Shown here: positions 13,768 through 64,000 of the stretch, one piece after another
Numbering within the stretch: position 1 is the stretch's first letter
How the letters are laid out: the number at the start of each line of letters is the position of its first letter
DNA from: a virus
Taxonomy: Duplodnaviria; Caudoviricetes
Length of the DNA stretch: 64,000 nucleotides
IMG/VR virus record: IMGVR_UViG_3300032116_022045
Direction: 5' to 3' (one strand)
The notes under the pieces: generated by a model
Told to the model about the DNA's origin: nothing
Databases searched by the model: none
What the model saw: the letters and a program-made list of their open reading frames with translations, nothing else
Position numbers and translations under genes: made by a program

Positions 13768-14202
13768 ATGAAACTTTACAATTTATTTAAAGATGTTATT
13801 TTAGAAGAAAGAAACCTTTTATCTGAAGGTGTATCTCAATCTCAAATTGAAGACGCTATTAATAATCAATATAACGTCAAAATTGAATATAGAGATTATG
13901 AAAATGAACCACCAAGTAAAAGGTATATTCAGGTATATAACTTATCCAAGACAAAAGCTGGTAATTACGCTATTAGAGCTTATCAAATATTTGGTGGTTC
14001 TAAAACAACACCAAAAGAAGGTTCTTGGAAAATATTTAGATTAGATAGAATAGAAAAATGGGAACCAACAAAAGTAAAATGGAAACAACCAGTATCTGAT
14101 TTAGATAACACTATACCAAAATATAATAAATTAGGAGACAAAACAATGTCAGTAGTATTAAAAAAAGTTAATTTAAAAAATGGAAACACCACAACCAGTT
14201 GA
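13768..14202 (+). CDS. Stand-alone WYL-domain protein
   Basis: VKIEYRD...KRYIQVYNL...YAIRAY...WKIFRLDRI, the WYL (SH3-like) signature. Confidence 0.75.
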   Translation: MKLYNLFKDVILEERNLLSEGVSQSQIEDAINNQYNVKIEYRDYENEPPSKRYIQVYNLSKTKAGNYAIRAYQIFGGSKTTPKEGSWKIFRLDRIEKWEPTKVKWKQPVSDLDNTIPKYNKLGDKTMSVVLKKVNLKNGNTTTS

Positions 14203-42021: not shown

Positions 42022-42852
42022 TTATTTCATATTTTTGCCAAGCAACCCTTCTCTTGCCATTCTTATTTTTAAATTTCTAACCCAATTAACTCTATAGTTA
42101 TAATTTAACATATCATACACAGTGTTTAATGCTGGTATACTAGCAAGTAAATCATCAAAACTTAAATTATCCCAATAATATTTACTTTCATTTCTTTTAA
42201 CCCATTCATAATATTGTTTTATATTATGAATTTGACCCTGTATTTCAATATAACTAGCGTTATCAGGTTTTTTACCAAATCTAAATATCCCTTTTCGTTC
42301 TCTTTCTTCTTTTTCATCATCCGATAATTTACTCCATTTACCCATTTTTGTACCCAAATGTCTATTATTGATAGTGTCGTCAATCCAATGAGCTAATTCA
42401 TGATGTATAGTACCTTTTATTTTTTTTTCACTAAATTCAGTAATAAAATTATTAGCTGTTTTTTGACCATGATAAGAAAGTAAATCCTCTTTAGCTAATT
42501 TAATATTACCATCATAACCTTCTAAAAAAGAAATAGCACCCTTATGTACAAGCAATGAAATTATATTAACATCAGAATTATAAAAATTACTTCCAAAGTC
42601 ACCAAAATTGTTTATAAAAATTTTACAAGGGTTAATCTTATTAGCTTTAATTGCTAATTCAGTCTTTAATATACTAGTGTCTGTTTCTTTAAATTTAAAC
42701 ATATTCTTAGTAAGAATACCAGTTCTGTTTAATTCATCAATGTCTTTTTTGAAATAATTGTTATACAATAAATCAACATCTTCATCAACCGCTGTCAATC
42801 TTTCTAATAACAAATTTTCCCTTAATAATTGTTTAATAGTTTCTTTTAACAT
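42022..42852 (-). CDS. Zincin-like HExxH protein with a putative capsid-targeting leader (start moved to 42852)
   Basis: MLKETIKQLLRENLLLE; TIHHELAHWID...YIEIQG; late motif at 42868-42876. Confidence 0.6.
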   Translation of the reverse strand: MLKETIKQLLRENLLLERLTAVDEDVDLLYNNYFKKDIDELNRTGILTKNMFKFKETDTSILKTELAIKANKINPCKIFINNFGDFGSNFYNSDVNIISLLVHKGAISFLEGYDGNIKLAKEDLLSYHGQKTANNFITEFSEKKIKGTIHHELAHWIDDTINNRHLGTKMGKWSKLSDDEKEERERKGIFRFGKKPDNASYIEIQGQIHNIKQYYEWVKRNESKYYWDNLSFDDLLASIPALNTVYDMLNYNYRVNWVRNLKIRMAREGLLGKNMK

Positions 42853-43901: not shown

Positions 43902-45800
43902 TTATCTCAATTCAGCAACATTGAATGTAGGTATACCATCTACACGTACATGGCCATAGAACCTATTGTTCACAACCTTCTTAGCGTAACGTGTCATGAT
44001 TCCTTTAACAGGAGCAAAGTTAAATGGATTGTACATAGTTGGGGTTAACTGAAGAGGTACGTATGGAGCGTAGATGTAACCAGTATCCAACAATGATTTA
44101 CCTTTATGACCGATAATCACAGAGTAAGCTGGGGAGTATGGGTCACGATAAACTTGGTAACGACCACTTAAAGAACCGATTCTCTCAATACCCATGTTAT
44201 ATTGGTCTTGCTCTGGATTTGCATCAGATACGTGGAAGTATTCTAAGTCATCGAATACAGCTGAAATTTCAGAAGATACAACGATAAAGTTAGCACCACC
44301 ACGAAGAGTAGATTTATGGATTTGAGCAGAGATTTGGTTAATTCTTGTGATAAGAGTTTGATTCCAGTCTTTCTGAGTATAAGGTGCAGCAGCAGAAGAT
44401 GCTTTTCTCCAACCATTATAGTCCCAACGCAATTGCCATGCAGCAGCTTTACGAAGGTCTCTTAAGATTTCACGGTCAATCTCAGCAGCTACTTGTTCAG
44501 ACAACATAGCAGTTAATTCAGCTTCAGCATCAATGTTGTGGAATGCACTAACGTCTTGTGCTAATTCTGGAGACCAAGTTGCACGTAATTTTCTTTCTTC
44601 AACAGAAACAACAACTTCATCAAGTTTAAAGGAAACTTCACCAAGTTCAGTTTCAAGTTCTAAAGAAGCGTATTCAGCCCAAGCGAAAACGTATGCAGGG
44701 TTAGTAGTTAAACCAGATACGGAGTTTGCAATACCAGTAGCTGGAGAAGTAGTACCAGTTGCACCAACGTAACCATCATAAGTAGAAGTACCAGCTTTAG
44801 CAGTACCAGAAGCGGTAGTACCTACAGGGTGACGAAGGTCAAGCTCGATATACATTACACCAGCAGGAGATACTAAAGTACCTTTATTTTGAACGATAGC
44901 TTTACCATACTGTTGAGTTACAAGTCTAAATGGAACTTCACCACCAGCAGCTACAACAACGTTACCATCTGGGTCAGTAATAGCGTTACTAGTAACACAA
45001 ATTAAAGAAGCTAAGAAAGATTCAGTATCAATGTTGTTACCATCTGGGCCAGTTAATACTTCAGCACCATTAGCAGCACCAGCACCACCTGAGAAACCAG
45101 AAAGACCAACGATAACGCTTCTTACAGTACCATCTTGTGCAGTAGGAAGAATGTTACCACCAGTAGTTGCACTAAAGGAACCATCATTAGTAAATACATA
45201 TGCTTGAAGAGCAGACATATTAATACTCTTAATAGTAAGGGTACCTTTAGAGTTATCAAACATACCGTCATTGTAGAAAATGTCGTATAAGTTTTTAGCC
45301 ATAAACTGAGTTAAAGGCTGAGAAGCTTTAGTTACAGCAACTGGAAGTGCAGCAGCAGTAGCAACACCGTTGTGTTCACCATTAAGACCAGTGTGAGCAG
45401 AATAAGTTGTACCATAAGGTAAAGTTGCATAATCATTACCAGCAACACCATTACCGTCAACACGGCTAGAAGTTTGTGGTACGAAGTAGAACAATTTACC
45501 GATTGGCATGTTCATTGCTTGTACAGATACGATATCATTAGCAAGCAATTTAGAGAAAACACGTCTTACGATAGGAAACACTACAGTTTCAAAAGAACCA
45601 GAACTGGTTGCTGTAGTAGATTCAGTCAATAAGTTAGAAGCTTGATTTTCGTACAACTGTGCGATGTTTTCTTTAACGTGGCCTTTAAGACCTTCGAGGA
45701 AGCCTAAGCTATCCCATTTTTCTTGGGTTTCTTTACGGATTGCTTTCATATGGTTTAATCCGATATTTCCCACTTGTCCAGAAGTTAATAAATGTGACAT
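43902..45800 (-). CDS. gp23: Major capsid protein, T4 gp23-like
   Basis: FPIVRRVF, VSVQAM..P.G.LFY, RKLRATWSPELAQD, YAPYVPL, GIMTRYA; probable cleavage at LLTE/S; strongly biased codon usage. Confidence 0.96.
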   Translation of the reverse strand: MSHLLTSGQVGNIGLNHMKAIRKETQEKWDSLGFLEGLKGHVKENIAQLYENQASNLLTESTTATSSGSFETVVFPIVRRVFSKLLANDIVSVQAMNMPIGKLFYFVPQTSSRVDGNGVAGNDYATLPYGTTYSAHTGLNGEHNGVATAAALPVAVTKASQPLTQFMAKNLYDIFYNDGMFDNSKGTLTIKSINMSALQAYVFTNDGSFSATTGGNILPTAQDGTVRSVIVGLSGFSGGAGAANGAEVLTGPDGNNIDTESFLASLICVTSNAITDPDGNVVVAAGGEVPFRLVTQQYGKAIVQNKGTLVSPAGVMYIELDLRHPVGTTASGTAKAGTSTYDGYVGATGTTSPATGIANSVSGLTTNPAYVFAWAEYASLELETELGEVSFKLDEVVVSVEERKLRATWSPELAQDVSAFHNIDAEAELTAMLSEQVAAEIDREILRDLRKAAAWQLRWDYNGWRKASSAAAPYTQKDWNQTLITRINQISAQIHKSTLRGGANFIVVSSEISAVFDDLEYFHVSDANPEQDQYNMGIERIGSLSGRYQVYRDPYSPAYSVIIGHKGKSLLDTGYIYAPYVPLQLTPTMYNPFNFAPVKGIMTRYAKKVVNNRFYGHVRVDGIPTFNVAELR

Positions 45801-47147: not shown

Positions 47148-47861
47148 TTATGATAATAAGAAATTATCTAAATTATTTTTAATATTTTCGTTTATTATAT
47201 TATTTTTTTGTTTAAAGTTTTCTACAAATGGTTGTGCTTCTTCTATGTTATTAAACATCCATGCATCTGGTGTTGATGGTGCTGTTACAACGTCCCAACA
47301 AATTATTTCAAAATCATCTTGTACAATTTGTTCACCGTTTTTACCTTCTTTTAAGCTACCAACACCTCTTGATGAAACACCTATTTTAATTCTATTTCTT
47401 AATAAGTTTGCGACTTCATCACCTTTTGTTGATACTATACCATAATTAATGAAACCTGGTGTCATTAATATTTCCATTTTACCCATAAGGGTTTTACCTT
47501 CCCACCATGTTTCTAATATGTTATGAGATATTCTATCAGCAGCTATTATTGAAGTATCTGGATGGTCCAATTCACCTACAGCACTTCTTTCCTTTATCAT
47601 TTTTTGATAAAGTTCATTTTGTTTTCTTAAAACTTCTTCAGGATAAATTCTACCGTTTCTGTTTAATACACCATATTTTTGCAATATAACGTAAACAACA
47701 AGTGGGTCTTCAATTATTAGTTTACCAGTTTCTAATTTTTTTATTTCATTTATAAACGGTAAATTTCTTGGTTCATTAGGACTAATGTAACCAGCATCAT
47801 ATTCAATTAATATACCCCTACCACTTTGTCCTCTTTTAAGTATTTTTAATTCGTTATCCAT
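47148..47861 (-). CDS. gp21: Prohead maturation protease, gp21-like
   Basis: NRNGRIYP, GELDHP, GVSSRGVGS, WDVVTAPS. Confidence 0.93.
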   Translation of the reverse strand: MDNELKILKRGQSGRGILIEYDAGYISPNEPRNLPFINEIKKLETGKLIIEDPLVVYVILQKYGVLNRNGRIYPEEVLRKQNELYQKMIKERSAVGELDHPDTSIIAADRISHNILETWWEGKTLMGKMEILMTPGFINYGIVSTKGDEVANLLRNRIKIGVSSRGVGSLKEGKNGEQIVQDDFEIICWDVVTAPSTPDAWMFNNIEEAQPFVENFKQKNNIINENIKNNLDNFLLS

Positions 47862-53203: not shown

Positions 53204-54976
53204 TTATCTAAACAACCATGAATAATCACCATGTGGGTCTTGAATCCCTCTAGAATTATATGGGTTAAATTTTGGTCTAGGGTGACTTGTTTTAACACCA
53301 TTTTGATTACTTACAAAACCATTTCTATTATCAGTTGTATTTGTGTTATTAGATGACCCACCAAGCCAAGCACTTAACATCGCTTTATTTTGTTTTTCCA
53401 ATCTTTCAAGATTTTTAAATGAATGTTCAGCAACCCATAATGCCATTGCAAGAGCCATTATACAATCATCATTATAACCATCCATATGGTCAGGTCTACC
53501 GTTTTTATATATAAATGTTTTAAGTTCTGATAATAACCTTGTTGACCTTATTTTAACAGCATTTGTTCTTATTTTATATTCTAAATTTGAAATCATTGGT
53601 AATCTAACAGACGTTGCATGAAAACCTGGTATCTTATTATCTTTTGAAAAATTTGCAACTTCTCTTTGTCTAGAAGATAATATTTTACCATTTTGCGTAT
53701 CATAGTGTAAATGTTTGTACCCAAATTCTAATAATTTAAGTACTGTTGAAACACCCATACCACCAGTTATATCTACAACAGTATATGCTTTATATTTTTC
53801 ACCATATTCCTCTATTATTTGAGCCAATAAATCTGGTTGTATTTTACCTTGATACTCCATTACTTGTTCCATTGTGGTAAAATCAATAATAACAATTGTT
53901 GATGAATCTTCTCCATCTCCACGACTAACATCGGACGACAAAATGTACTGATGACCTTCTTTTGGTTCTTCCCAAATCCAAATATTTTTTTCGGCACCTA
54001 AAGTCCATTTAGGGTCTTGCATATTATTTTTATATTGTGCTTCAATATATTGCTCTTCAATAACATTACCACCAGAACCTATAAATGATACATCTAATTC
54101 TTGAGCAATCATTCTAGCGTCATTATTCATCGCTAGACACATTTCTTCATACCATGGTGAAGTAGGTTTCCAACCTTCACTTATTCTTTTATTATATGAT
54201 TCAAAAGTAAATTCAACTTCTTTTTCAATTAATTCATCTTTAAACCATCTTAATTCTCTATTATATCTTAAATCTTCATACCATTTCATTTCAATGATAT
54301 TAAAATTATTTTTCTTTTGTTTTGCTAAATCATATGTTTTATAATATAATTCATCAAGACCTTTTGGTGTTGATATAAGAATTGCTTTACCACCGCTACC
54401 AAGGGCCGTAAGAGCCGCACCAAAGACTTCTGCACCATTATCTATATACGCAGCTTCATCCATTACAAGATACGTTGGTGTAAAGCCTCTTAATGCGTCT
54501 TTTGATGTTGCTACTGCTTTTATACGACTACCATTTGGTAATTTTATTTCTTTTTTAGAATCAGTTAAAAAAATTGTTTTTTCTTCATTCTTTTTATTAC
54601 CATAATATTCTGAACCCCAAACCCATCTTGGTAATTGATTAACAAAATCTTTAATTTTAGCTAAAAATTCAAACGCTAATTCTTGTTTATTGGCAATGAT
54701 TAGAATATTTTCAGGGTTTTCTTCATCTGCAAAACCTGCTTTTATTGATAGATAAGCAGCTGTTGTTGTTGACACCCCAGCTTGTCTTGGCTTTGTAACT
54801 AAATTATGTCTATGGTTTTCATAAGCATATATTATTTCCTTTTGTCTTGGAAACAATTTAAATGGTACATATCCTTCTTGAGTCTTATCAAAAGTTTCCA
54901 AATAAGTTTCAATAGCATATGTAGGATTAGTTAAACATAAAGCATATTCCTTTAATATTTCTTGTACTGTTAACAT
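53204..54976 (-). CDS. terL: Terminase large subunit (gp17-like)
   Basis: KPRQAGVSTT deviant Walker A, LVMDEAA Walker B, SSDVSRG and DDCIMALA nuclease motifs. Confidence 0.95.
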   Translation of the reverse strand: MLTVQEILKEYALCLTNPTYAIETYLETFDKTQEGYVPFKLFPRQKEIIYAYENHRHNLVTKPRQAGVSTTTAAYLSIKAGFADEENPENILIIANKQELAFEFLAKIKDFVNQLPRWVWGSEYYGNKKNEEKTIFLTDSKKEIKLPNGSRIKAVATSKDALRGFTPTYLVMDEAAYIDNGAEVFGAALTALGSGGKAILISTPKGLDELYYKTYDLAKQKKNNFNIIEMKWYEDLRYNRELRWFKDELIEKEVEFTFESYNKRISEGWKPTSPWYEEMCLAMNNDARMIAQELDVSFIGSGGNVIEEQYIEAQYKNNMQDPKWTLGAEKNIWIWEEPKEGHQYILSSDVSRGDGEDSSTIVIIDFTTMEQVMEYQGKIQPDLLAQIIEEYGEKYKAYTVVDITGGMGVSTVLKLLEFGYKHLHYDTQNGKILSSRQREVANFSKDNKIPGFHATSVRLPMISNLEYKIRTNAVKIRSTRLLSELKTFIYKNGRPDHMDGYNDDCIMALAMALWVAEHSFKNLERLEKQNKAMLSAWLGGSSNNTNTTDNRNGFVSNQNGVKTSHPRPKFNPYNSRGIQDPHGDYSWLFR

Positions 54977-54986
54977 GTTTATATAA

Positions 54987-55370
54987 TTAAAATGTTGGGT
55001 AAGCAGTTAATTCATATCTACCGCTAGGCATTCTATAAATAGAAATAGCTATATTTCTGTTAAGTTCTTTACCTCTTTTATTCAATATTGGTTCACCATC
55101 TTTTAATAAAGATATTGTCGCACTTTTAGTTGTTTCATATGGAATACCACCAGTGCCAAAATGAGTAAACAATTCATCTTCATTTAATTCATAACCAAGT
55201 GCATTAGCCATATCTCTAACCGAATCTAATGCTTCAGACAATGTTTCATAATAATCATTATTACGTGTGTCAATTTTATTAAAGTTTTTCTTAAAACTTT
55301 CTATAATAATTCTTTCTTTTTCAGCTAAAATAGCCTTTCTTTCTGTTTCTGTTAATATTAGTTTTTTCAT
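54987..55370 (-). CDS. Hypothetical protein with MKKLILTE leader (putative internal head protein)
   Basis: Leader MKKLILTETERKAILAE; domain YYETLSEALD...RMPSGRYEL. Confidence 0.6.
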   Translation of the reverse strand: MKKLILTETERKAILAEKERIIIESFKKNFNKIDTRNNDYYETLSEALDSVRDMANALGYELNEDELFTHFGTGGIPYETTKSATISLLKDGEPILNKRGKELNRNIAISIYRMPSGRYELTAYPTF

Positions 55371-55375
55371 AAAAA

Positions 55376-56545
55376 TTAATTATTTAAAAATAATTCTTCA
55401 TAAGAATAACCTAAAGATGAACTATTATTTTTGTTAGCTTCATTCATAGCTTCATTAAAATCATCTTCTTGTAATTCTGTTTTTATTTTTTTAGATAACT
55501 CTTCAATTATCTTTTTACCTTTTTTTGTATGTGCCATTATTTCACGCATATTAGAATTAAATTCTTCTGTTGGCATACAAACCAAATCAGTATATATTTG
55601 GTGTTTTAAATTAAAATCTTCTGGTTTAATAAGTTTTGTAAATCTATTCCATATAGCTGGTCCTAACCTAATATCCCATGGTTCAGCAGCAGTAAAATCT
55701 GCTTTATTAATAACATACTCACCAAGTTTTTTATCTTTAGGTAATCCATGTGCAGAGATTAATTCCATAACACCTTTAACAAGTTCATGTATTAAAACTG
55801 GGAAAACCATTCCTTGTGCATATATAACAGCTTTTGGGTTTTTTTTGGTTGGAAATTGAACTCTAACAACACCACTATTTATTGTGTTATCCATTTCAGG
55901 TACCACAAAATAAGTATAATCTGATGCTGACATTAATTTATTATATTTATTTGGTAATCTTGGGTCTAAATCAGATATATCATCATCAGCCATATGATAC
56001 ATATGATTACATTTTCTTGATGCACCTTCAACCATTGAATTTATAAATCTTCTTTTATAAACTTCTTTTTTTGCTTTTGCCATATCATCATGACTTTCAA
56101 ACTCTAATTGAACAGCCACAGGTTTTTTATTTTTTTTAGGTGCTTCTAATGTGATATTTGGTGTTAATTTAGCGTGTATTTCTACCACATTACTATCCAT
56201 ATTAAATTCTTCTCTAATCATTTTCTCAGCTAATTTCTCAAGAGATTTTCTATGTTTAGATTCTAATTTCATAGTTTCAGTTAATAATGGTGTAATACTT
56301 GACATAATTAACTTATCATCAATTTCTGTCATATCATGTGCTTTTTTACATCTATTAACAACTTCTTTAAAGCGTTCACCAATTATTTTTTCCTCAAATA
56401 ATGATTCATCAGTTTCTGGAAAAATTTCATTTAACCCTAATGAATGTTTTCTGCCAACCAATTCTTCTTCAAGTTTTGGATGCATTCTTTCTTTTAAACT
56501 TTCAGGATAAACAACATTTTCATTTAATATTCTTTTATTCATCAT
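55376..56545 (-). CDS. Hypothetical protein with a degenerate zincin-like motif (HELVKG)
   Basis: 389 aa; VLIHELVKGVMEL. Confidence 0.6.
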   Translation of the reverse strand: MMNKRILNENVVYPESLKERMHPKLEEELVGRKHSLGLNEIFPETDESLFEEKIIGERFKEVVNRCKKAHDMTEIDDKLIMSSITPLLTETMKLESKHRKSLEKLAEKMIREEFNMDSNVVEIHAKLTPNITLEAPKKNKKPVAVQLEFESHDDMAKAKKEVYKRRFINSMVEGASRKCNHMYHMADDDISDLDPRLPNKYNKLMSASDYTYFVVPEMDNTINSGVVRVQFPTKKNPKAVIYAQGMVFPVLIHELVKGVMELISAHGLPKDKKLGEYVINKADFTAAEPWDIRLGPAIWNRFTKLIKPEDFNLKHQIYTDLVCMPTEEFNSNMREIMAHTKKGKKIIEELSKKIKTELQEDDFNEAMNEANKNNSSSLGYSYEELFLNN

Positions 56546-57176
56546 TTAAATCTTTAACTTTAATTATTTTATTTTCTTTTTTAGGTTTTTGACCAAATAA
56601 TCTTTCGTAAACATATTTTTTAAATTCACTAAGACCCATATATTTTTCATTTTCTTTCATATTAGCTTTAGCTAATTCTTCAACAGTTCTAAATTTTCTT
56701 ATTTTACCATTTTCATTTACAATGAAATGTTTAAATTCATTTAGATTTAATGAATCAGAACCAGTTTGTTTTTCTTCTTGTTTAATTAATTCACCTTCAA
56801 TTAAGTCTTTGGCTGGTTTAGCGACATTTTCTTCAAAATATTGTACTGGGTATATTTTATTATCACCAGAGTCATCATACTCATCATGACAATAGACACC
56901 CATAACAACTTCTTGATTAGGTGTTACACCTCTAACCATTTGATATTGTTTACCAGATATGTTAAATGGTTTAGATATCTCACCAGTACGACTGTCAATG
57001 ACATTCGATAAATATTTAATAGTTTCTGGGTCTTTAGGTTCTATTACAGCATCAACTTCATTAATTTTATCAGTAACTACAATATTTACATTATGGTTAT
57101 CACCAATATCTTGTATGGTCTTTTTTAAACCATCTGACGTTGTTATAACTGTAGGTTTTTTTTCATTATTCTCCAT
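56535..57176 (-). CDS. Hypothetical protein
   Basis: 213-aa ORF, overlap-coupled. Confidence 0.6.
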   Translation of the reverse strand: MENNEKKPTVITTSDGLKKTIQDIGDNHNVNIVVTDKINEVDAVIEPKDPETIKYLSNVIDSRTGEISKPFNISGKQYQMVRGVTPNQEVVMGVYCHDEYDDSGDNKIYPVQYFEENVAKPAKDLIEGELIKQEEKQTGSDSLNLNEFKHFIVNENGKIRKFRTVEELAKANMKENEKYMGLSEFKKYVYERLFGQKPKKENKIIKVKDLNDE

Positions 57177-57573
57177 GGTATTGCTTTTTATAATTAAGTA
57201 TTAGGTCTTTTTCATAAAGTTTATTTTCAACATCAATATTTTTTTCACCAAAACTAAATGATAGTCTTTTATCTGGATATGACTCATAAGCATTTATATT
57301 TTCCCATGCCATTGCGATTACACCATCAACAGCATCCCATATAGCAAATGTATCACTATCTTGTATTAAATCAAGTTTAAGTTCTGATTCAAGTTTACCC
57401 ACTTTTTTTATTAAATTTTCATGTGGTGGTTCTGGTCTACCAGATGCTGGATACATATCCCAATCTGGACCATCAATATTATCTAATGAATCAGAAAATA
57501 AAAATTCATAAAGGTATTGACCTTTATAATTTTTACCGACTTTATTAATATAAATCAAATATAAATTTTCCAT
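57166..57573 (-). CDS. Hypothetical protein
   Basis: 135-aa acidic, aromatic-rich ORF. Confidence 0.6.
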   Translation of the reverse strand: MENLYLIYINKVGKNYKGQYLYEFLFSDSLDNIDGPDWDMYPASGRPEPPHENLIKKVGKLESELKLDLIQDSDTFAIWDAVDGVIAMAWENINAYESYPDKRLSFSFGEKNIDVENKLYEKDLILNYKKQYHGE

Positions 57574-60512
57574 TATTCAATATCTGCCATTGGTAAAAAA
57601 GGTTTATTTTCTCTTTTAATATTTAATGGTTTTTCAATATTATGTTTTTTACTTTTTTTATCTTTAGAATCCTTATCGTTAGTTTGTTTTGGTCTTTCAT
57701 CATCGTCATCATCACCAAAGGTTTCATTTAATTGTCTTTGAATATAATGTTTATCAAAACCATGCATATCTATTTTATTTTTTAAGAAATGATATACTTC
57801 TTCGATGTCATCTTTTGATGTTGCGATATGGTCTAATGCCCAACCATGACCATCTGATAAGACATTATCAACATTTTCAAAATCCATACCTTTCATTTCT
57901 GAAACTGCATTATAGATAGTTTTTAAATTTTGCCAAAACATATAATTATTTGACATTTCATCTTTATTTGACATAATTTCTTCTAATTTTTGTTTAAAAT
58001 TTTCCATATTTTCTTTAATACTTTTTTTACCCCATGATTTACCTTTACCTTTTGTTTTACATGCACTAGGATATGGTCTACATGCTGGATATTTAGCTCT
58101 TTTTTCACCTTCTTCTCTACCACAAGGTTTACATTTTAATCTACCAGTTTCTTTATTTTTTCTACATGTATTACAATCAACCCAGCCTTGTGAACCTTCA
58201 CCACCTTTTCTAGAAAACCAACCATGAAGACCTTGTGATTTCTCTTTTGAGAAGTTAGTTTTTTTAGATTCATCTACTTTAATCTTATTTGTTTTGATAT
58301 AATCATCAATCCATGCTTGTAATTCATGTACATCTGGTGCGTATTCTTTACCCTTTTTTCTTGTAATCGAATCATGAGCTTTTTTAATCATTTCTCGACT
58401 CAACTTTTCTCTATCTATCTCTTTAGTTTTATTAATAGTTTTTTTACCTTCAGTAAATAATCTAGGCATTGTTAAGTATTTAATTATATTTTTATAATAA
58501 ATATTAACATTACTACGCTTATCTTTAATTAATTCACCGTTATCGTTTTTTGGTGTTAGATAACCATTAACATAACCAGTTTCAAAATTAAACTTTTTCA
58601 TTTCAAATTTAACTAATTTAGATGACAAAACATCGTTTCTATAAGATTCACTTTTATCTTCAAACTTATCTTTTAAACTATTTATTGTTTCTAGCATATC
58701 TAAATTAAAATCAACATCATTATTAGCAAAATAAATTTCTAAAAGGTTAATCGCTTCAAAATGTTTAGCGATTTGAATTATTTTTTCTATTTCATCTAAG
58801 TCTTTAATGTCAACTTGTTTCATAATATCATCTATGTTATCTTCATTAAAACCACCAATATGATGTATAAACATAATTGCATCATAGTTTTCATCATCAT
58901 ATCTATTTTCTAAACTTGCTTCAAGACCATACAAAAAATCACGTCTAAAATCTTTAGCCATATCTGGATAATCAATGTAATTTAAAGCCATAGAAACTGT
59001 ATAATAACCATCTGAATTTCCATCACCTTCAAAAGCAGCTCTTACTAAGCTTTCTTTCTGTTCATCTGTAAATTTATTACTATAAAAATTTTCAAAAGTT
59101 TCAGTATCACCATTTTCTAATGATGCTTCACAGATATTAAAATCAAGGTCGTTACCATAAATTTTATTAAAAAATTCATAAACATCATCATTTTCATTCA
59201 TAAATTCACCAAGTCTTATTGGATAATCTTTAGCGTCCATAAATTGAGAATCCTCAAAATGAAATTGATATTTTTCAGAAGGGTCTTGTTTATTTATTAA
59301 TATGTATAAAGACCCTCTATTATTATAACGGTCAAACATGTTATTATAACCAGTTGCTGCTGTACACCATTTTGTACCTTTACCATAATAACAAGAAGCT
59401 TCTTCTGTTTTTGGAACAATAATTGTCCAGTTAGTTAAATTATATTTATCAACGTCTTTTTTAATTTCTTTTTCTATATCTGTTTTTGATTTTAACTCTT
59501 CACTATCTGATTTTGATTCTAAATCAAAAATAAAATCTAATAAAGTTTTTATATTAAATTTATTAATATCTTTTTTATCAGTAGGTAATAGATTTTTAAT
59601 CTTACTAGTATTAAAAAATTCTAAATCGTTTTTTATTTTATATAAATCTTCATCTTTAGCTTTTTTCAATAATTCAACATTATCTTTTCTGAATAACCAT
59701 CTAGTATATTCACCTAATTTATTTTTATCTTTATTATATGTTGGGTCTAAATCAATTATTTTATTAAATTTTTCTTTATCTGATTTTTCATCATCTTTAT
59801 TAAATAAGTTTTTATAGAATTTATTATAAGCTTCTTCAGAACTTATTTCATTTATTATGTTCATATTTTCTTCCATTATTTTTTTAATAAATTTTTTTTG
59901 CCTTAATTTAATTGTATCTAATGATTCTTTAATCTTTTTTCTACCTTGACAATGTGCTTTTTGGCTAAACCCTTTTGGGTTACTACAATCAATACTCTTT
60001 TTGTATTTCTCTGACCATTTCTCATTAATTTGGTCATCAATATTTTCATCAGTTTTATTTCCCCAATTAGCAGCACCAACTTTACGACATTTTACGAGGG
60101 CACCTGAACCGTAGGCACTTGGCCAGACAGAATATCTACTTTTTACTTTATAATAACAAGCATCTCTTTTTGTTTTTTTCTTTTTCTTTTTACCCTCTTG
60201 AATAATTTCAAATATAGCATATTCACCATCTTCAAAATCAGTTTCAATAACTTCAACCATTAAATCACCAGAACCTTTAATTACCCTATGAAATGTGTTT
60301 TTAGGTATAAAAATTTCTTCATTAACATTAAGTTTTTTTGGCAATTCATTATCAAATTGAATCATCCAATCATTGTTTTCTAAAACAATAACAACTCTAT
60401 CTTTTTTATCTCTATGCCAAGATAATTCATTTTCATTAACGTCTTTTGAAAATGAACGTCTAATTATATTATTATTTATAGTTTCCTTATAAGGTTTCAT
60501 ATTATTTTTCAT
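57573..60512 (-). CDS. Multi-module (polyvalent-like) protein: cupin, Cys-rich basic modules, GTKWCT domain, HGWALDH module
   Basis: WHRD...FHRVIKG cupin; RDACYYKVK; SIDCSNPKGFSQKAHC; YYGKGTKWCTAA; WVDCNTCR; modules separated by x-x-E linkers. The start is probably 60512 or 60500. Confidence 0.75.
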   Translation of the reverse strand: MKNNMKPYKETINNNIIRRSFSKDVNENELSWHRDKKDRVVIVLENNDWMIQFDNELPKKLNVNEEIFIPKNTFHRVIKGSGDLMVEVIETDFEDGEYAIFEIIQEGKKKKKKTKRDACYYKVKSRYSVWPSAYGSGALVKCRKVGAANWGNKTDENIDDQINEKWSEKYKKSIDCSNPKGFSQKAHCQGRKKIKESLDTIKLRQKKFIKKIMEENMNIINEISSEEAYNKFYKNLFNKDDEKSDKEKFNKIIDLDPTYNKDKNKLGEYTRWLFRKDNVELLKKAKDEDLYKIKNDLEFFNTSKIKNLLPTDKKDINKFNIKTLLDFIFDLESKSDSEELKSKTDIEKEIKKDVDKYNLTNWTIIVPKTEEASCYYGKGTKWCTAATGYNNMFDRYNNRGSLYILINKQDPSEKYQFHFEDSQFMDAKDYPIRLGEFMNENDDVYEFFNKIYGNDLDFNICEASLENGDTETFENFYSNKFTDEQKESLVRAAFEGDGNSDGYYTVSMALNYIDYPDMAKDFRRDFLYGLEASLENRYDDENYDAIMFIHHIGGFNEDNIDDIMKQVDIKDLDEIEKIIQIAKHFEAINLLEIYFANNDVDFNLDMLETINSLKDKFEDKSESYRNDVLSSKLVKFEMKKFNFETGYVNGYLTPKNDNGELIKDKRSNVNIYYKNIIKYLTMPRLFTEGKKTINKTKEIDREKLSREMIKKAHDSITRKKGKEYAPDVHELQAWIDDYIKTNKIKVDESKKTNFSKEKSQGLHGWFSRKGGEGSQGWVDCNTCRKNKETGRLKCKPCGREEGEKRAKYPACRPYPSACKTKGKGKSWGKKSIKENMENFKQKLEEIMSNKDEMSNNYMFWQNLKTIYNAVSEMKGMDFENVDNVLSDGHGWALDHIATSKDDIEEVYHFLKNKIDMHGFDKHYIQRQLNETFGDDDDDERPKQTNDKDSKDKKSKKHNIEKPLNIKRENKPFLPMADIE

Positions 60513-60954
60513 TTTTTTCTTGCCATTTATATGAGATTGAATCATCTTCGATAGGACCACCTTTGGCCCATGTTCTACAACTTCTAGCTGAATGACATTT
60601 AAAATGATGCATCCAACAATAACCTAATCTACCATCTTCATCAGATACTGGACCTGGCATACAATCATCCATTCTTTTAGAGATATCAAAAGCAACACAA
60701 TTACCACATCTAGATTCCATAGCAGCTTCAACACTAGTATCCCAATGGTCAGCTATATTTTCCCAAAAATCAGCTGGTTCATCAACATTTAACGGACCAT
60801 ATTTAATGTGTGGTTCATTTATTGCAGCATCTCTATTTTTAGTGTTTAATTCTAAATCTTGTGTTGCTTTTGGACAATCCATTTCTGGTTTACCTAAAAC
60901 TTGTCTGTTTTTTCTTTCAATTAATATTTTTTTGTTTTTTTCTATTCTTCCCAT
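60502..60954 (-). CDS. Cys-rich small protein (metal/Fe-S-binding candidate)
   Basis: CGNC...C...GYCWMHHFKCHSARSCRTW. Confidence 0.65.
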   Translation of the reverse strand: MGRIEKNKKILIERKNRQVLGKPEMDCPKATQDLELNTKNRDAAINEPHIKYGPLNVDEPADFWENIADHWDTSVEAAMESRCGNCVAFDISKRMDDCMPGPVSDEDGRLGYCWMHHFKCHSARSCRTWAKGGPIEDDSISYKWQEKNEK

Positions 60955-60975
60955 AATTAATCTTTTTAATAAGTA

Positions 60976-62334
60976 TTACCAGTTTAATCTATCATTTAAT
61001 ATTTCATTAAAATTATCATTATCTATGTTACCATCAAAACCATATCTAGGGTAATTAAAATCAATTTTACCGTATTTTTCTGAGTAACCAGTAATAAATG
61101 ATGATGTGTCCATACCATATAATAAAATTGGTTCAGGACAAGTTATCTTTAATTTTATCTTATCACCATACTCAACATTTGTACCACCAAAATGATTAAT
61201 TATATGTTTTGTTATTTGGTCGTAAGCTTCTTTTTCATCAGCTTGACGTTTAGCGTCAGATAACGCACCATCTATTTCACCAATAAATTCATCAAGTATA
61301 GCTTCTTCAAGTTCATCATCATCCATTTCATTTAAATCATAACCATTTTCTTTAAGTTTTTCCTTAATTAAAGACATATTTTTGTCATTAATATCATCTA
61401 AATAATATAACTTGATATCACTTCTACTATAATCATAATCAGTATAATTATCATCTAAATCTCTTAAAAACATTGCTGGATTAATGTAGTTTCTATCTTC
61501 TTCAAAAGCGTCTTCAAAATCACCCCAATCATTAACAACAATGTAACAAGAATCGTTAGCAACTTCTAAATCACTAAATTTAAGTGATTTAACTCTATCT
61601 TTTAAAAAATTATTATAAAAATTTCTTAAACCAGCGTTTTGTTTATTATCGATAAATTCAAATAATTCTATTTCATTATCATCAATATCCATAAATTGAC
61701 TTGTTTCAAAATGAAACTGATATCTATCTTCATAATCACTTTTATTTATATTAATAAATAAAGGACCTGTTTTATCATAATAATCAAATCTATTTGTTTT
61801 AGATTTATGTCTATCATCAAAAGATTTTTCACCCCATGTTGTGCACCATTCAGTACCTCTACCATAATAACATGAGGCATATTCTGTTTCTGGTATAATA
61901 ACACACCATTTTTCATCCTCATATACTTTTTTAGCACCATCAATAACAGAACACAAATCAACTTGTTTACCTGATTCATAACTAGAATAATCTAATTTGT
62001 TTTTTACGATATTACCGAGTTCACCAAGAGTTTTAAATTTGTCGTAATCTATGTTTTTAAATTCAGATTGTTTAAATTTATCAAATGTTTGTATGTATTC
62101 TGTTGCTCTTTCTAAGTCTTCTAGTTTTAATTGTTTATTCTTATAAATTTTTAATAACCACTTAGCATAAGGACTTAAAAATTTTGGTTTTGAAAATGGG
62201 TCAGCATTAATAATTAAGTCATATTCCTCTTTTGGAATGTCTTTATAAAACTTAATATAAGCGTCATCGACAGTTATTTCTATCAATAAAGACTTAAGTT
62301 TTTTTAATTGTGTTTCCGTTATTTTTATTTTCAT
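60976..62334 (-). CDS. Putative internal head protein with a GT(E/K)WCT domain; paralog of the central domain of 57573-60512
   Basis: Leader MKIKITETQLKKLKSLLIE; YYGRGTEWCTT, YQFHFETSQFMD. Confidence 0.7.
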   Translation of the reverse strand: MKIKITETQLKKLKSLLIEITVDDAYIKFYKDIPKEEYDLIINADPFSKPKFLSPYAKWLLKIYKNKQLKLEDLERATEYIQTFDKFKQSEFKNIDYDKFKTLGELGNIVKNKLDYSSYESGKQVDLCSVIDGAKKVYEDEKWCVIIPETEYASCYYGRGTEWCTTWGEKSFDDRHKSKTNRFDYYDKTGPLFININKSDYEDRYQFHFETSQFMDIDDNEIELFEFIDNKQNAGLRNFYNNFLKDRVKSLKFSDLEVANDSCYIVVNDWGDFEDAFEEDRNYINPAMFLRDLDDNYTDYDYSRSDIKLYYLDDINDKNMSLIKEKLKENGYDLNEMDDDELEEAILDEFIGEIDGALSDAKRQADEKEAYDQITKHIINHFGGTNVEYGDKIKLKITCPEPILLYGMDTSSFITGYSEKYGKIDFNYPRYGFDGNIDNDNFNEILNDRLNW

Positions 62335-62366
62335 TTTTTTATCTAATTAATAAATATTGTTTTGTA

Positions 62367-63884
62367 TCACCAAAAAGTACCGCCCCCACTCAAACCAAGC
62401 AATTTAGAATATCTTGGAAGTCGGCAGCTCCAGTAACCTGGTGTTGTCTTATCATTTTTACTTTTACAATTATGTCTATCAGCAAATCTTTTTCTAGCTT
62501 TTGGGTCTCTTAATTTAACAGCTAAATTACCACCACCAGATTTAGCACCAAAAGATACTTTTTTAATATTACCTGATTTTGGGTCTTTAACATAAACATA
62601 GAATTTTTTAGAACCACCTCTTTTTGGTTTGTTTAATTGTACCTTTTTACCTTTATATTCAGCTTCCTTTAATGATTCTTTATTAACTTCTTCAAATATA
62701 AAATTCATTTTTAATTTCTGGTTATTGTATTCGACATACATATTATCAAAATCATTTATAATAAAAGAATCGTTTTCATTTAAAGCAAGTAAATTATTTT
62801 TATATAATTTTTTTACTTCAGTCATTAAATTCATGAATTTTTCTGAACCATATCTAAATACTGATTCACCTAATGCAATACCATTATCTAAATGATATTG
62901 TAATTCAGGTGATACTTGAACATTTTTTGTTAATTGCATTGGTTTTGACCATTCACTATAATCATCATTAATATTACTATCTAAAAAATGATATACTTCT
63001 TCAACATCATCAGCAGAAGTTGCGATATGGTCTAATGCCCAACCATGACCATCTGATAAAATAGAATCAACTTTATCACAGTCCATAGATAATATTTCTT
63101 CTACAGCGTCACATATTGTTTTTAAGTTAGCCCAAAACATATAGTTATTAGTCTCAATTTCATCGTCATGGTTAACGTTTTGATAATCGTTTGATGGATT
63201 ATATTCATTACTACCTTTTGGTGCGAATATGCTTAGCTTTTTGGGGTTAGATAATAAAAAGTTTTCACTAGATTCATCCACAGTTTCTTCATCACCTTTA
63301 TTATCAACATTTTCATCAGAATCAATATTGCTGTTATCATCAATATTATCATTGCCATCATCGCTAGTATTAGACTGATTAGTGTTTTCATCATTTTTTC
63401 CAGATTTTTTTACTTTTTTAATTATATCTTTTTGGTCATCAGCATCCATTTCACCAGTATGTGTTGCTGACAATAATGAATTAATAGCAAATTTTTCTAA
63501 TTCAAAATCTGGTTGACCTTGTTCATCTGTGTATTGTCTAAGTGATTGACCTAATTTACCAGTTAATTGTTGTATAAATTTCTTTGGGTCTTCTTCTTCA
63601 TCAGCTTCAACACCAGCGTCAAATGGTTCTTTTTCAAAAGGCATTTCACCAGAATCAGCATCTGTAGGTTCTGTTGTATTATCTACTGCTTGATTGTCCA
63701 CTGGTTGATTATCCATTGGTTCGTCCATTGGTTGTTCCATTGGTTCATCAGCAGGGATATCAGTAGGTTCACCCATTGGCTGTTCCATTGGTGCCATAGG
63801 TGCTGGTTGTGCTGGTTTAGGTGAAGATATCTTTAATTTATATTTAACTTCTTCAGTTAACTTATCAATTAAACTTTTTTTTTT
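62367..63884 (-). CDS. Multi-module protein (Pro/acidic linker, HGWALDH module, basic C-terminal module), probably the -1 frame continuation of the upstream ORF
   Basis: The frame is open from the A10 run (KKKSLIDKLTEEVKYKLK...) through ATG 63797 to ...GGGTFW. Confidence 0.7.
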   Translation of the reverse strand, partial: KKKSLIDKLTEEVKYKLKISSPKPAQPAPMAPMEQPMGEPTDIPADEPMEQPMDEPMDNQPVDNQAVDNTTEPTDADSGEMPFEKEPFDAGVEADEEEDPKKFIQQLTGKLGQSLRQYTDEQGQPDFELEKFAINSLLSATHTGEMDADDQKDIIKKVKKSGKNDENTNQSNTSDDGNDNIDDNSNIDSDENVDNKGDEETVDESSENFLLSNPKKLSIFAPKGSNEYNPSNDYQNVNHDDEIETNNYMFWANLKTICDAVEEILSMDCDKVDSILSDGHGWALDHIATSADDVEEVYHFLDSNINDDYSEWSKPMQLTKNVQVSPELQYHLDNGIALGESVFRYGSEKFMNLMTEVKKLYKNNLLALNENDSFIINDFDNMYVEYNNQKLKMNFIFEEVNKESLKEAEYKGKKVQLNKPKRGGSKKFYVYVKDPKSGNIKKVSFGAKSGGGNLAVKLRDPKARKRFADRHNCKSKNDKTTPGYWSCRLPRYSKLLGLSGGGTFW

Positions 63885-64000
63885 AATTTAACACCTCTAC
63901 CTTTTAATATATCAGCTCTAGTAACTTTACCATCACCAGTTAAATCAGGAAAACTTTTTTTACGTTCATCAATATTTTTAGATGGTTTAATGTATATTCT
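63869..64000 (-). CDS. C-terminal end of an upstream ORF with an EF-hand/dockerin-like loop (partial)
   Basis: RIYIKPSKNIDERKKSFPDLTGDGKVTRADILKGRGVKLKKKV*. Confidence 0.7.
   Translation of the reverse strand, partial: RIYIKPSKNIDERKKSFPDLTGDGKVTRADILKGRGVKLKKKV

Follow-up and report, generated by a model that had tools for sequence, protein, structure and literature searches.

In an uncultured T4-like jumbo phage from a freshwater lake, a hypervariable locus lies directly upstream of the large terminase gene (TerL), which locus is likely to be a head-cargo locus whose precursors, built as chains of modules, are packed into the prohead and cut after the junction Glu by a protease of the T4 gp21 type. 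As judged from the sequence, the long module-chain proteins probably enter the capsid and are then chopped into many small proteins, and the system would be a variation on the internal-protein system of T4 with many cargo units per reading frame. All features described here lie on the minus strand of the analyzed stretch of 64,000 nucleotides (the window). A preliminary description had proposed packaged polyproteins, cut during head maturation into small effectors that would be injected with the DNA and might counter host defences or condense DNA. Its view of the proteins as modular mosaics proved right, as the 975-aa and 476-aa ORFs are both chains of small modules which relatives hold in other orders. 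The polyprotein reading is supported in part and indirectly, by the module chains, the motif at the module N-termini, the leader genes, the gp21-type protease and the homologues in virions, but the 975-aa protein begins with MKPYKE and a cupin and has no recognisable T4-type N-terminal targeting leader.

This largest mosaic protein, P0001 (57573–60500), occurs in relatives with its modules in other orders and combinations. Its start had been placed at 60512, but ATG 60500 is the most likely true start, giving MKPYKE as in all relatives. From the N- to the C-terminus it consists of a cupin, the modules WPSAY and KWS, an internal leader, a GTKWCT-type domain, a helical AHD module, KKTNF/GLHGWF, HGWALDH and a Pro-rich tail. 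The small cupin domain (aa 1–97; 60210–60500) is modelled by AF2 at a pLDDT of 84–90 and is predicted to adopt the double-stranded beta-helix fold of the cupin superfamily; the earlier cupin assignment was borne out by 142 Foldseek matches in the PDB at E<=1e-3, the top ones all being small cupins with a TM by target of about 0.6. IQE100–102/G and a Lys run stand in front of the basic, Lys/Cys-rich WPSAY module (aa 103–152; 60045–60194), INE158–160/K stands in front of the basic Cys-pair module KWS (aa 161–192; 59925–60020), and 4671 cluster representatives hold this pair of modules. An internal copy of the leader of the stand-alone protein p452 follows (aa 193–218; 59847–59924), ending in INE216–218/I and aligning with the leaders of 59 stand-alone family members, in which [LIF][LIFT]xE lies 0–2 residues from the domain start. 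The GTKWCT-type domain with its C-terminal variable region (aa 219–684; 58449–59846) is a window-specific insertion that none of the mosaic proteins at the 80 related loci contains; it is a paralogue of the 60976 ORF encoding p452, with which it shares a 65-nt DNA repeat (82% identical). VDE742–744/S precedes the Cys-rich basic module KKTNF/GLHGWF (aa 745–830; 58011–58268), and then come a linker and the HGWALDH module (aa 831–926, module proper 850–910; 57723–58010), whose paralogue in the 476-aa ORF forms with it a 179-nt direct repeat (78% identical). A conserved C-terminal tail (57576–57722), rich in Pro and containing NKPFLP, follows LNE924–926/T; it is kept in 29 distinct mosaic variants regardless of module content and is a candidate anchoring element. 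Together with IKE190–192, FTE682–684 and IKE828–830 these are the eight junction tripeptides listed in the preliminary description; all of them are present, but the two IKE motifs are without the hydrophobic P3 in relatives. The modules are tiny (30–90 aa), mostly basic and non-enzymatic by appearance, and a Pfam search with them gave no match at E<5 except for a weak cupin-type match.

The second mosaic ORF, P0002 (476 aa; 62367–63797), was delimited by ortholog alignment and consists of an acidic PFDAG domain, an acidic linker ending in VDE/S, HGWALDH, a conserved domain (aa 285–375), LKE376–378/A and an EYKG module. It has no N-terminal targeting leader of its own and depends on a frameshift: an A10 run (63875–63884), located where the upstream ORF ends (stop 63870–63872), is a conserved −1 slip site with LTE/E right after it. 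At least 21 distinct relatives carry A9–A11 at this position with the −1 frame open for 274–872 codons; [LV]xE directly follows the conserved slip site, and in six of these relatives the conserved PFDAG motif stands before the first Met. The 476-aa ORF therefore forms the second portion of a conserved fusion with the upstream ORF, made by −1 frameshifting at A10. From the four candidate cleavage sites once assigned to this ORF, VDE/S and LKE/A indeed lie at module boundaries, but LNE/N (aa 339–341) falls within a conserved folded-looking domain and LTE/E precedes the ATG, so that it would be translated only via the −1 slip. The EYKG module is found too in podoviruses and in an archaeal spindle virus, which are without such a protease, so its function would not be tied to T4-type heads; as a stand-alone podovirus gene it starts with MAKYKG or MATYKG, compared with [ILM]xE/AEYKG in T4-like phages. 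A classification of this module as 'HVA1 family protein', a name carried only by the CRP-901 homologue, was rejected, since NCBIfam gave no match at E<=0.1.

Two modules exist also as separate genes behind a leader with an identical end motif. The 452-aa GTKWCT-family protein p452 (60976–62334) has 219 homologues, most of which come from large phage contigs, and carries a 19-aa leader, MKIKITE...LLIE/I (62278–62334). The AF2 model has a pLDDT of 91.5 overall against 53–57 for aa 1–20, with the confident fold starting right after E19. All 60 aligned members of this family possess a leader ending in [LIF][LIFT]xE, which in the 975-aa protein is internal. No PDB structure matched the GTKWCT domain, and the idea that it is PcfJ-like (PF14284) was dropped, as there was no Pfam match and the AFDB-cluster fold rows were weak (E 5e-3 to 0.2, TM <0.3). 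The second protein, p127 (127 aa; 54987–55370), has the leader MKKLILTE...IIIE/S (55299–55370), read from its translation, and in relatives its module forms a C-terminal extension of the mosaic protein, attached behind ...PDPKA[IVLM][KN]E/GKFDYETYH. The leaders described earlier could be confirmed for the 54987 ORF (MKKLILTE), the 60976 ORF (MKIKITE...LLIE) and the 42022 ORF (MLKETIKQLLRENLLLE). Between the mosaic genes and TerL are three core genes encoding proteins of 389, 213 and 135 aa (55376–57573), for which family and profile searches gave no family matches. They keep the same order in 54–75 of the 80 related loci; the arrangement from core genes to TerL is constant there and the combinations of common modules upstream of it vary, and some loci join p476-type and p979-type modules in a single 800-aa protein.

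The presumed processing enzyme is encoded 7 kb from the cargo locus by a gene (47148–47861) for a prohead protease of the T4 gp21 type (MEROPS S77), which scores 89 bits with Pfam Peptidase_S77 (cut-off 27). Over 160 aa the protein shares 33% identity with T4 gp21 (E 6e-22), with conserved GEL[DN]HP (His) and GVSSRG (Ser) blocks. Processing by gp21 is known to take place after Glu (PMC5694885, PMC3012670). The major capsid protein contains the motif LLTE/S (aa 57–61), as described before, and its LTE58–60/S (45621–45629) is a candidate maturation site: BLAST aligned the N-terminal region of this protein to that of T4 gp23, which reads ...GSFLTE/AEIGG, and 12 aa separate the motif from the conserved VRR block.

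Whether the junction motifs are cleavage sites at all was weighed against the view that the proteins, whether associated with the virion or not, are ordinary multidomain proteins which stay uncleaved and in which hydrophobic-x-Glu is a structural cap or linker preference travelling with shuffled modules. Motif density within the window is near chance and would fit this view: the P0001-type ORF shows only a modest enrichment of [ILMV]xE (27 against 16.8 from shuffles, z 2.9), the 476-aa ORF was not enriched in the same comparison (10 against 7.7 expected), and the [IL]xE density of these ORFs is average for the genome. The 389-aa core protein is enriched as well (21 against 11.1 expected, z 3.65), and the whole proteome has an excess (455 against 368 from shuffles), which helical, Glu-rich proteins would be expected to show. 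We then counted motifs in 201 related proteins, taking only independent upstream contexts and a background rate of 0.023 [ILMV]xE per position. Directly in front of the KWS core the motif was found in 65 of 68 contexts, with Glu in all 68 and conservation gone at P4; the other cores gave 31/38 (WFKEKWV), 12/19 (LH[GK]WF), 9/12 with two more one residue off (KKTDF) and 5/5 each (EYKG and AAWTKK). For WPSAY, 33 of 35 independent contexts have the junction motif 3–12 aa ahead of the module, and the HGWALDH module has Glu before [ST]NNYMFW in 13 of 15, with a hydrophobic P3 in just six of these 15. Hence the proposed frequency of the motif at module boundaries is far beyond chance at module starts, but only once relatives are included. 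One tripeptide rule shared by at least seven module families, unrelated to each other, at their N-terminal edges is hard to reconcile with a mere structural preference. The motif could also be a cap that belongs to the N-terminus of every module, but stand-alone module ORFs begin exactly at P1', with M-G-W-S in five stand-alone KWS ORFs, and do not need the Glu. Moreover, two junctions, IQE102 and INE160, lie according to AF2 in disordered linkers (pLDDT <50) between folded parts and not in a fold; the linker at aa 91–111 surrounds the first of them, and the disordered segment aa 149–160 terminates at E160. The leaders of the stand-alone cargo genes, finally, end by the identical rule. As [ILMV]xE is conserved inside folded domains too, for example as IEE/VYHF, accessibility would have to select the cut sites. 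On balance we regard uncleaved proteins as unlikely.

Virion evidence comes from homologues. In cyanophage S-SCSM1 gp029, a 517-aa modular WPSAY protein encoded just upstream of TerL, is annotated as 'virion protein' on the basis of a 45-protein mass-spectrometry virion proteome, and the p452 homologue EST35_0205 of phage PA5oct is annotated as 'structural protein, ESI-MS/MS'. A homologue from RB11-B is annotated as virion or structural as well, with mass spectrometry stated only for the S-SCSM1 and PA5oct homologues. From these detections in other phages we infer the location in the head, and such data show virion presence without separating head from tail. The proteins might hence be processed or virion-borne without being head cargo, either as tail, baseplate or fibre accessories or as targets of another Glu-specific protease of host or phage, the resemblance to gp21 sites then being coincidental; it would agree with this that the homologous cyanophage genes sit among tail-fibre-like genes as well as beside the terminase. 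The T4 capsid-targeting sequence is MKTYQEFIAE, of 10 residues, and neighbouring cyanophage genes start with the close sequences MKTFKQFMSE and MKTLKQFLKE. This likeness of the family leaders argues for the head, as do the position of the mosaic-gene locus, which on the same strand adjoins the terminase-portal-protease-capsid module, and the near confinement of the WPSAY/KWS modules to T4-like cyanophages, which account for 358 of the 365 records with them in the phage collection, so that we find this alternative improbable. Although modules are clearly shuffled between relatives, it is very unlikely that the conserved junctions are recombination sites, short DNA linkers allowing module swaps with the peptide motif as a by-product, as P2 is free, so that no DNA homology beyond a few bases is kept, and as the linker class ELx[VI]YE/[AN], which recurs between unrelated modules, varies with its flanks in synonymous codons (TAT/TAC, GAA/GAG, TTA/TTG/CTT/CTG and all four Ala codons), indicating selection on peptide and not on DNA.

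The head-cargo reading can be compared with several known systems. The T4 internal proteins IPI, IPII, IPIII and Alt carry a capsid-targeting sequence and are processed by gp21. With their system the locus shares a head module of the T4 type that includes a homologue of gp21, cargo genes that are hypervariable between relatives, leaders ending in [LI]-x-Glu in the p452 family and in p127, and small, basic expected products. In contrast to the one leader per gene of T4, many units are found here per frame, every joint being marked by a cut motif; the leaders of p452 and p127 are longer, about twice the 10 residues of T4, and hold two motifs; the largest chain is without an N-terminal leader and one chain is made by −1 frameshift. 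No similarity to IPI, IPII, IPIII or Alt was found in Pfam, PHROG-function, NCBIfam and PDB sequence searches. Giant phages (phiKZ gp175, 201phi2-1, SPN3US gp245) possess head-internal proteins cut after Glu, with the motif x-X-Glu, at several sites by a gp21-related protease, which has been established via semi-tryptic peptides (PMC5694885, PMC10052503). They thus resemble our phage in having many head-internal proteins with several Glu sites and such a protease, but theirs belongs to S80, with A-X-E in SPN3US (phiKZ and 201phi2-1 being described as analogous), whereas S77 and a hydrophobic P3 are found here, and their multiple cuts mainly destroy propeptides instead of releasing a series of independent modules. 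The polyvalent proteins of phages and conjugative elements (Iyer, Burroughs, Anand, de Souza, Aravind 2017) are, according to a published proposal, packaged into the virion and delivered together with the DNA, and some are proteolytically processed (PMC5512222). Like them, the proteins of the 80 related loci are multidomain, fast-shuffling and encoded beside virion genes, here next to TerL. A Pfam search found none of their hallmark domains (zincin peptidase, ART, ParB, SNF2 and others), and differences are the 30–90-aa, non-enzymatic-looking modules and a processing that would be carried out by the head protease at regular linkers. Finally, retroviral Gag-Pol and the phage tail chaperone G/GT offer an analogy without homology for this dsDNA tailed phage, as there a product is cut by the virus's own assembly protease and a slippery run gives short and long forms in a fixed ratio; our slip site differs in being an A10 homopolymer, where the slip may be ribosomal or transcriptional.

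Taken together we suggest the following model, in which cleavage, ejection and module functions are what we infer. Each precursor is a string of small, autonomous and for the most part basic modules, taken from a pool common to thousands of aquatic T4-like phages, with hydrophobic-x-Glu before each module matching the specificity of a T4 gp21-type protease. The precursors would be incorporated into the prohead core, p452 and p127 via their ~19–24-aa N-terminal amphipathic leaders, the 476-aa ORF by being appended to the upstream protein through the −1 frameshift, and the 975-aa chain possibly by means of its conserved C-terminal tail. The protease would then cut after every junction Glu, taking the leaders off and freeing the modules as separate small proteins, which would remain with the DNA and presumably be ejected along with it. 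More tentatively, it is possible that T4-like phages of lakes and oceans in general follow such a Gag-Pol-like assembly, in which a common pool of tiny basic modules, spanning thousands of protein clusters, feeds polyproteins that enter the prohead by leader, tail or slip and are diced by the capsid protease at hydrophobic-x-Glu as a universal mark; the −1 slip would then add cargo to an abundant upstream protein at a fixed ratio. If this is true, a single gene would deliver a strain-specific cocktail of mini-proteins together with the DNA.

The window (GC about 27%) carries a T4-type head module on the minus strand, comprising the major capsid protein gp23 (43902-45800), a scaffold-like acidic ORF, an S77 prohead protease (47148-47861), a portal with an intein and the large terminase TerL (53204-54976). 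The protease shares 33% identity with T4 gp21 and retains its His and Ser blocks, and the LLTE/S site (slash, presumed cut) that the preliminary description had seen in the capsid protein could be confirmed as LTE/S 12 residues upstream of the conserved VRR block, in the N-terminal region that aligns with the part of T4 gp23 containing the maturation site LTE/A. Downstream of the capsid gene, a 276-aa ORF (42022-42852, minus strand) with a leader-like start (MLKE.TIKQLLRE.NLLLE) and a zincin-type HELAH motif may encode a metallopeptidase as a further leader-tagged cargo. A 144-aa ORF (13768-14202, plus strand), remote from the head module, starts with MKLYNLFKDVILEE, which resembles a T4-type targeting leader.

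Upstream of the terminase gene lie eight co-oriented ORFs. The largest had been drawn up to 60512, but its start is most likely the ATG at 60500, as relatives begin the same way (MKPYKE), giving a mosaic protein of 975 aa (57573-60500, minus strand). All eight junction tripeptides listed for it were found in the sequence, and the cupin call was correct (AF2 pLDDT 84-90; 142 PDB matches with Foldseek). Beyond a weak cupin-type Pfam match, Pfam, PHROGs and NCBIfam returned no function for the modules or for the core genes between the mosaic genes and TerL (55376-57573, minus strand), and the large protein had no match among PDB sequences. Weak Atlas leads (DUF5872, DUF6321, PcfJ) stayed unconfirmed and the Atlas result for the 389-aa core protein p389 was noise. 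Between two mosaic genes lies a 150-aa Cys-rich protein (60502-60954, minus strand) with 83-90% identity in nine relatives, far above the conservation of the neighbouring genes, and its stop and the start of the 975-aa ORF are 1 nt apart. Paralogous DNA repeats connect the mosaic genes at the HGWALDH modules (57772-57950 and 62971-63149, 78% identity) and at the GTKWCT core (59358-59422 and 61837-61901, 82% identity), which would fit a recent module duplication or gene conversion.

Using the terminase as query we gathered 80 related loci from IMG/VR (74-83% identity); p452, the neighbouring 452-aa GTKWCT-family protein (60976-62334, minus strand), gave no matches as query for such loci. Orthologues of the three core genes (135, 213 and 389 aa) stand directly before TerL, each in 54-75 of the 80 loci, and further upstream each locus encodes between one and three mosaic proteins (300-823 aa) with the same modules in other orders. 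The GTKWCT region of the 975-aa protein (aa 219-684) is missing from the mosaic proteins of all 80 loci; it is a window-specific in-frame insertion and a paralogue of the 452-aa gene. The 127-aa ORF of the window (54987-55370, minus strand) is the C-terminal module of a mosaic protein in several relatives, and cyanophage S-SM2 has homologous modular proteins between gp16 and gp17, the same locus. The pair of WPSAY and KWS modules is found in 4671 cluster representatives and can sit anywhere within proteins of 108-1258 aa. In two relatives (L028, 4697-7168; L019, 689-3259) an intein-like insertion splits the invariant WPSAYA/SGA of the WPSAY module (WPSAYAC...HN/SGAVV), and as inteins usually occupy functionally critical sites this motif is probably important.

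The junction motif [ILMV]-x-E was scored relative to conserved module cores, and a context entered the count only if its far-upstream sequence differed. Directly before the KWS core the motif is present in 65 of 68 independent contexts, with Glu at P1 in all 68, Leu, Val or Ile at P3 and no conservation from P4 outward, compared with a background rate of 0.023 per position; in the relatives the motif is indeed commoner at module boundaries than elsewhere, as had been proposed. It also directly precedes WFKEKWV (31/38), LH[GK]WF (12/19), KKTDF (9/12), EYKG (5/5) and AAWTKK (5/5), and for WPSAY it lies inside a variable Lys spacer in 33 of 35 contexts. For the HGWALDH module only the Glu is conserved (13 of 15 contexts), with a hydrophobic P3 in 6 of 15. 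In podoviruses the EYKG module starts with MAKYKG or MATYKG where T4-like phages have [ILM]xE/AEYKG, so the module begins exactly at P1' and the motif is dispensable; five stand-alone KWS-type ORFs start with M-GWS. An unbiased test with BLAST HSP starts as breakpoints gave a 1.8-fold enrichment (motif within +/-2 residues in 25.6% vs 14.1%) and was replaced by the anchored counts because HSP ends are too fuzzy.

The best explanation, which we regard as moderately probable, is that the locus encodes polyproteins of head cargo and that the gp21-type protease would cut them at these junctions. Less probably, the mosaic proteins could be ordinary multidomain proteins that stay uncleaved, with the motif serving as a structural cap. 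Within the window alone the motif gives no striking signal: the large ORF has an [IL]xE density equal to the genome average, and [ILMV]xE counts are 27 against 16.8 expected from shuffles in the 975-aa-type ORF (z 2.9), at expectation in the 476-aa ORF (62367-63797, minus strand) and in excess across the whole proteome. The AF2 model of aa 1-215 of the 975-aa protein combines a confident cupin, a WPSAY module of three helices and a helical KWS module with two segments of pLDDT below 50, namely the linker aa 91-111, which contains IQE102 and a Lys run, and aa 149-160, which ends exactly at INE160. The region's largest [ILMV]xE excess was found in p389 (55376-56545, minus strand), conserved just before TerL (21 vs 11.1 expected, z 3.65); p389 is a possible protease substrate or core protein in its own right.

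Cleavable head cargo would also be consistent with the leaders. Except for its first 20 residues p452 is modelled with pLDDT 91.5 and its fold begins right after LLIE19; Foldseek gave no match among solved structures for this confident model. Every one of the 60 aligned proteins of the p452 family has a leader of 12-25 residues ending in [LIF][LIFT]xE. The 975-aa protein contains such a leader internally (aa 193-218), and at its own start, where the cupin lies, no targeting signal was recognised. Cyanophage neighbour genes start with MKTLKQFLKE and MKTFKQFMSE, close to the T4 capsid-targeting sequence, MKTYQEFIAE. The concept of a capsid-targeting sequence has been described (PMC3012670, PMC5694885). 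In two cultured T4-like relatives, Methylophilales phage Melnitz-3 (L088, 1342-3557) and HTVC008M (L087, 1079-2869), an NMNAT/cytidylyltransferase-like enzyme begins with a leader (MKKFSEIIE, MKTLKE); the Melnitz enzyme is fused to small modules, the last being EYKG, and the next ORF, overlapping by 7 nt, is a cupin. NMNAT-like proteins are known as cyanophage virion proteins from mass-spectrometry detection.

The ORF running off the window ends with KKKV and a stop on an A10 run (63875-63884, minus strand), from which the -1 frame continues without a stop into the 476-aa ORF. This slip arrangement (window 63870-63890) is shared by at least 21 distinct relatives (L008-L077 equivalents), with the -1 frame open for 274-872 codons and an upstream ORF of 240-435 aa that is itself mosaic. 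As the arrangement and the trans-frame peptide KK[ST]L.E/..KYKLK are conserved and a conserved PFDAG domain lies upstream of the first Met in six of these relatives, the 476-aa ORF most likely forms the C-terminal portion of a fusion that depends on the slip and whose junction again carries [LV]xE. An A11 variant (L028) was ruled out as a natural in-frame fusion, the -1 arrangement being present there too. In public runs, the stretch 62300-64000 turned up in freshwater metagenomes from about 15 studies. In a single metatranscriptome (run X19) two low-depth contigs end or begin inside the A10 run and DNA contigs bridge it; coming from one study and from contigs only, this says nothing firm on transcriptional slippage.

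Virion presence of the modular proteins is indicated indirectly, by homologues in other phages only. S-SCSM1 gp029, a 517-aa modular WPSAY protein encoded just before TerL, is annotated as 'virion protein' in a phage with a virion proteome of 45 proteins by mass spectrometry (974 peptides; PMC9602691), a homologue in RB11-B is annotated as 'structural protein', and PA5oct EST35_0205 of the GTKWCT family as 'structural protein, ESI-MS/MS'. The supplementary data of Sullivan et al. 2010 have no entry for the cluster T4-GC119, so that its detection in S-SM1 virions found no confirmation there. The annotations of the homologues would also suit a virion protein located outside the head, a reading we consider unlikely. 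That the junctions are recombination linkers is disfavoured by the stronger linker ELx[VI]YE/[AN]: it is repeated between unrelated modules while its synonymous codons vary, pointing to selection on the peptide and not to a DNA recombination site.

Published systems that come near the proposed head cargo are the internal proteins of T4 and their targeting sequence, the multiply cut head proteins known from phiKZ-like phages (PMC5694885, PMC10052503) and what Iyer et al. call 'polyvalent proteins' (PMC5512222); a limited literature search turned up no account of mini-module chains with protease punctuation in aquatic T4-like phages. If true, hydrophobic-x-Glu before a module would be a simple annotation rule for hundreds of 'hypothetical' virion proteins, and the role of the very widespread WPSAY, KWS and EYKG modules would become directly testable, with DNA condensation, protection of incoming DNA and counter-defence as candidates. 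Should the cuts prove real, the internal proteins of T4 would represent the minor form of a far larger scheme, in which abundant aquatic phages (cyanophages, pelagiphages and freshwater jumbo phages) would carry genes for sets of injected mini-proteins that can be predicted from sequence, written as polyproteins, shuffled by module and, in the clade of the window, coupled via a conserved frameshift.
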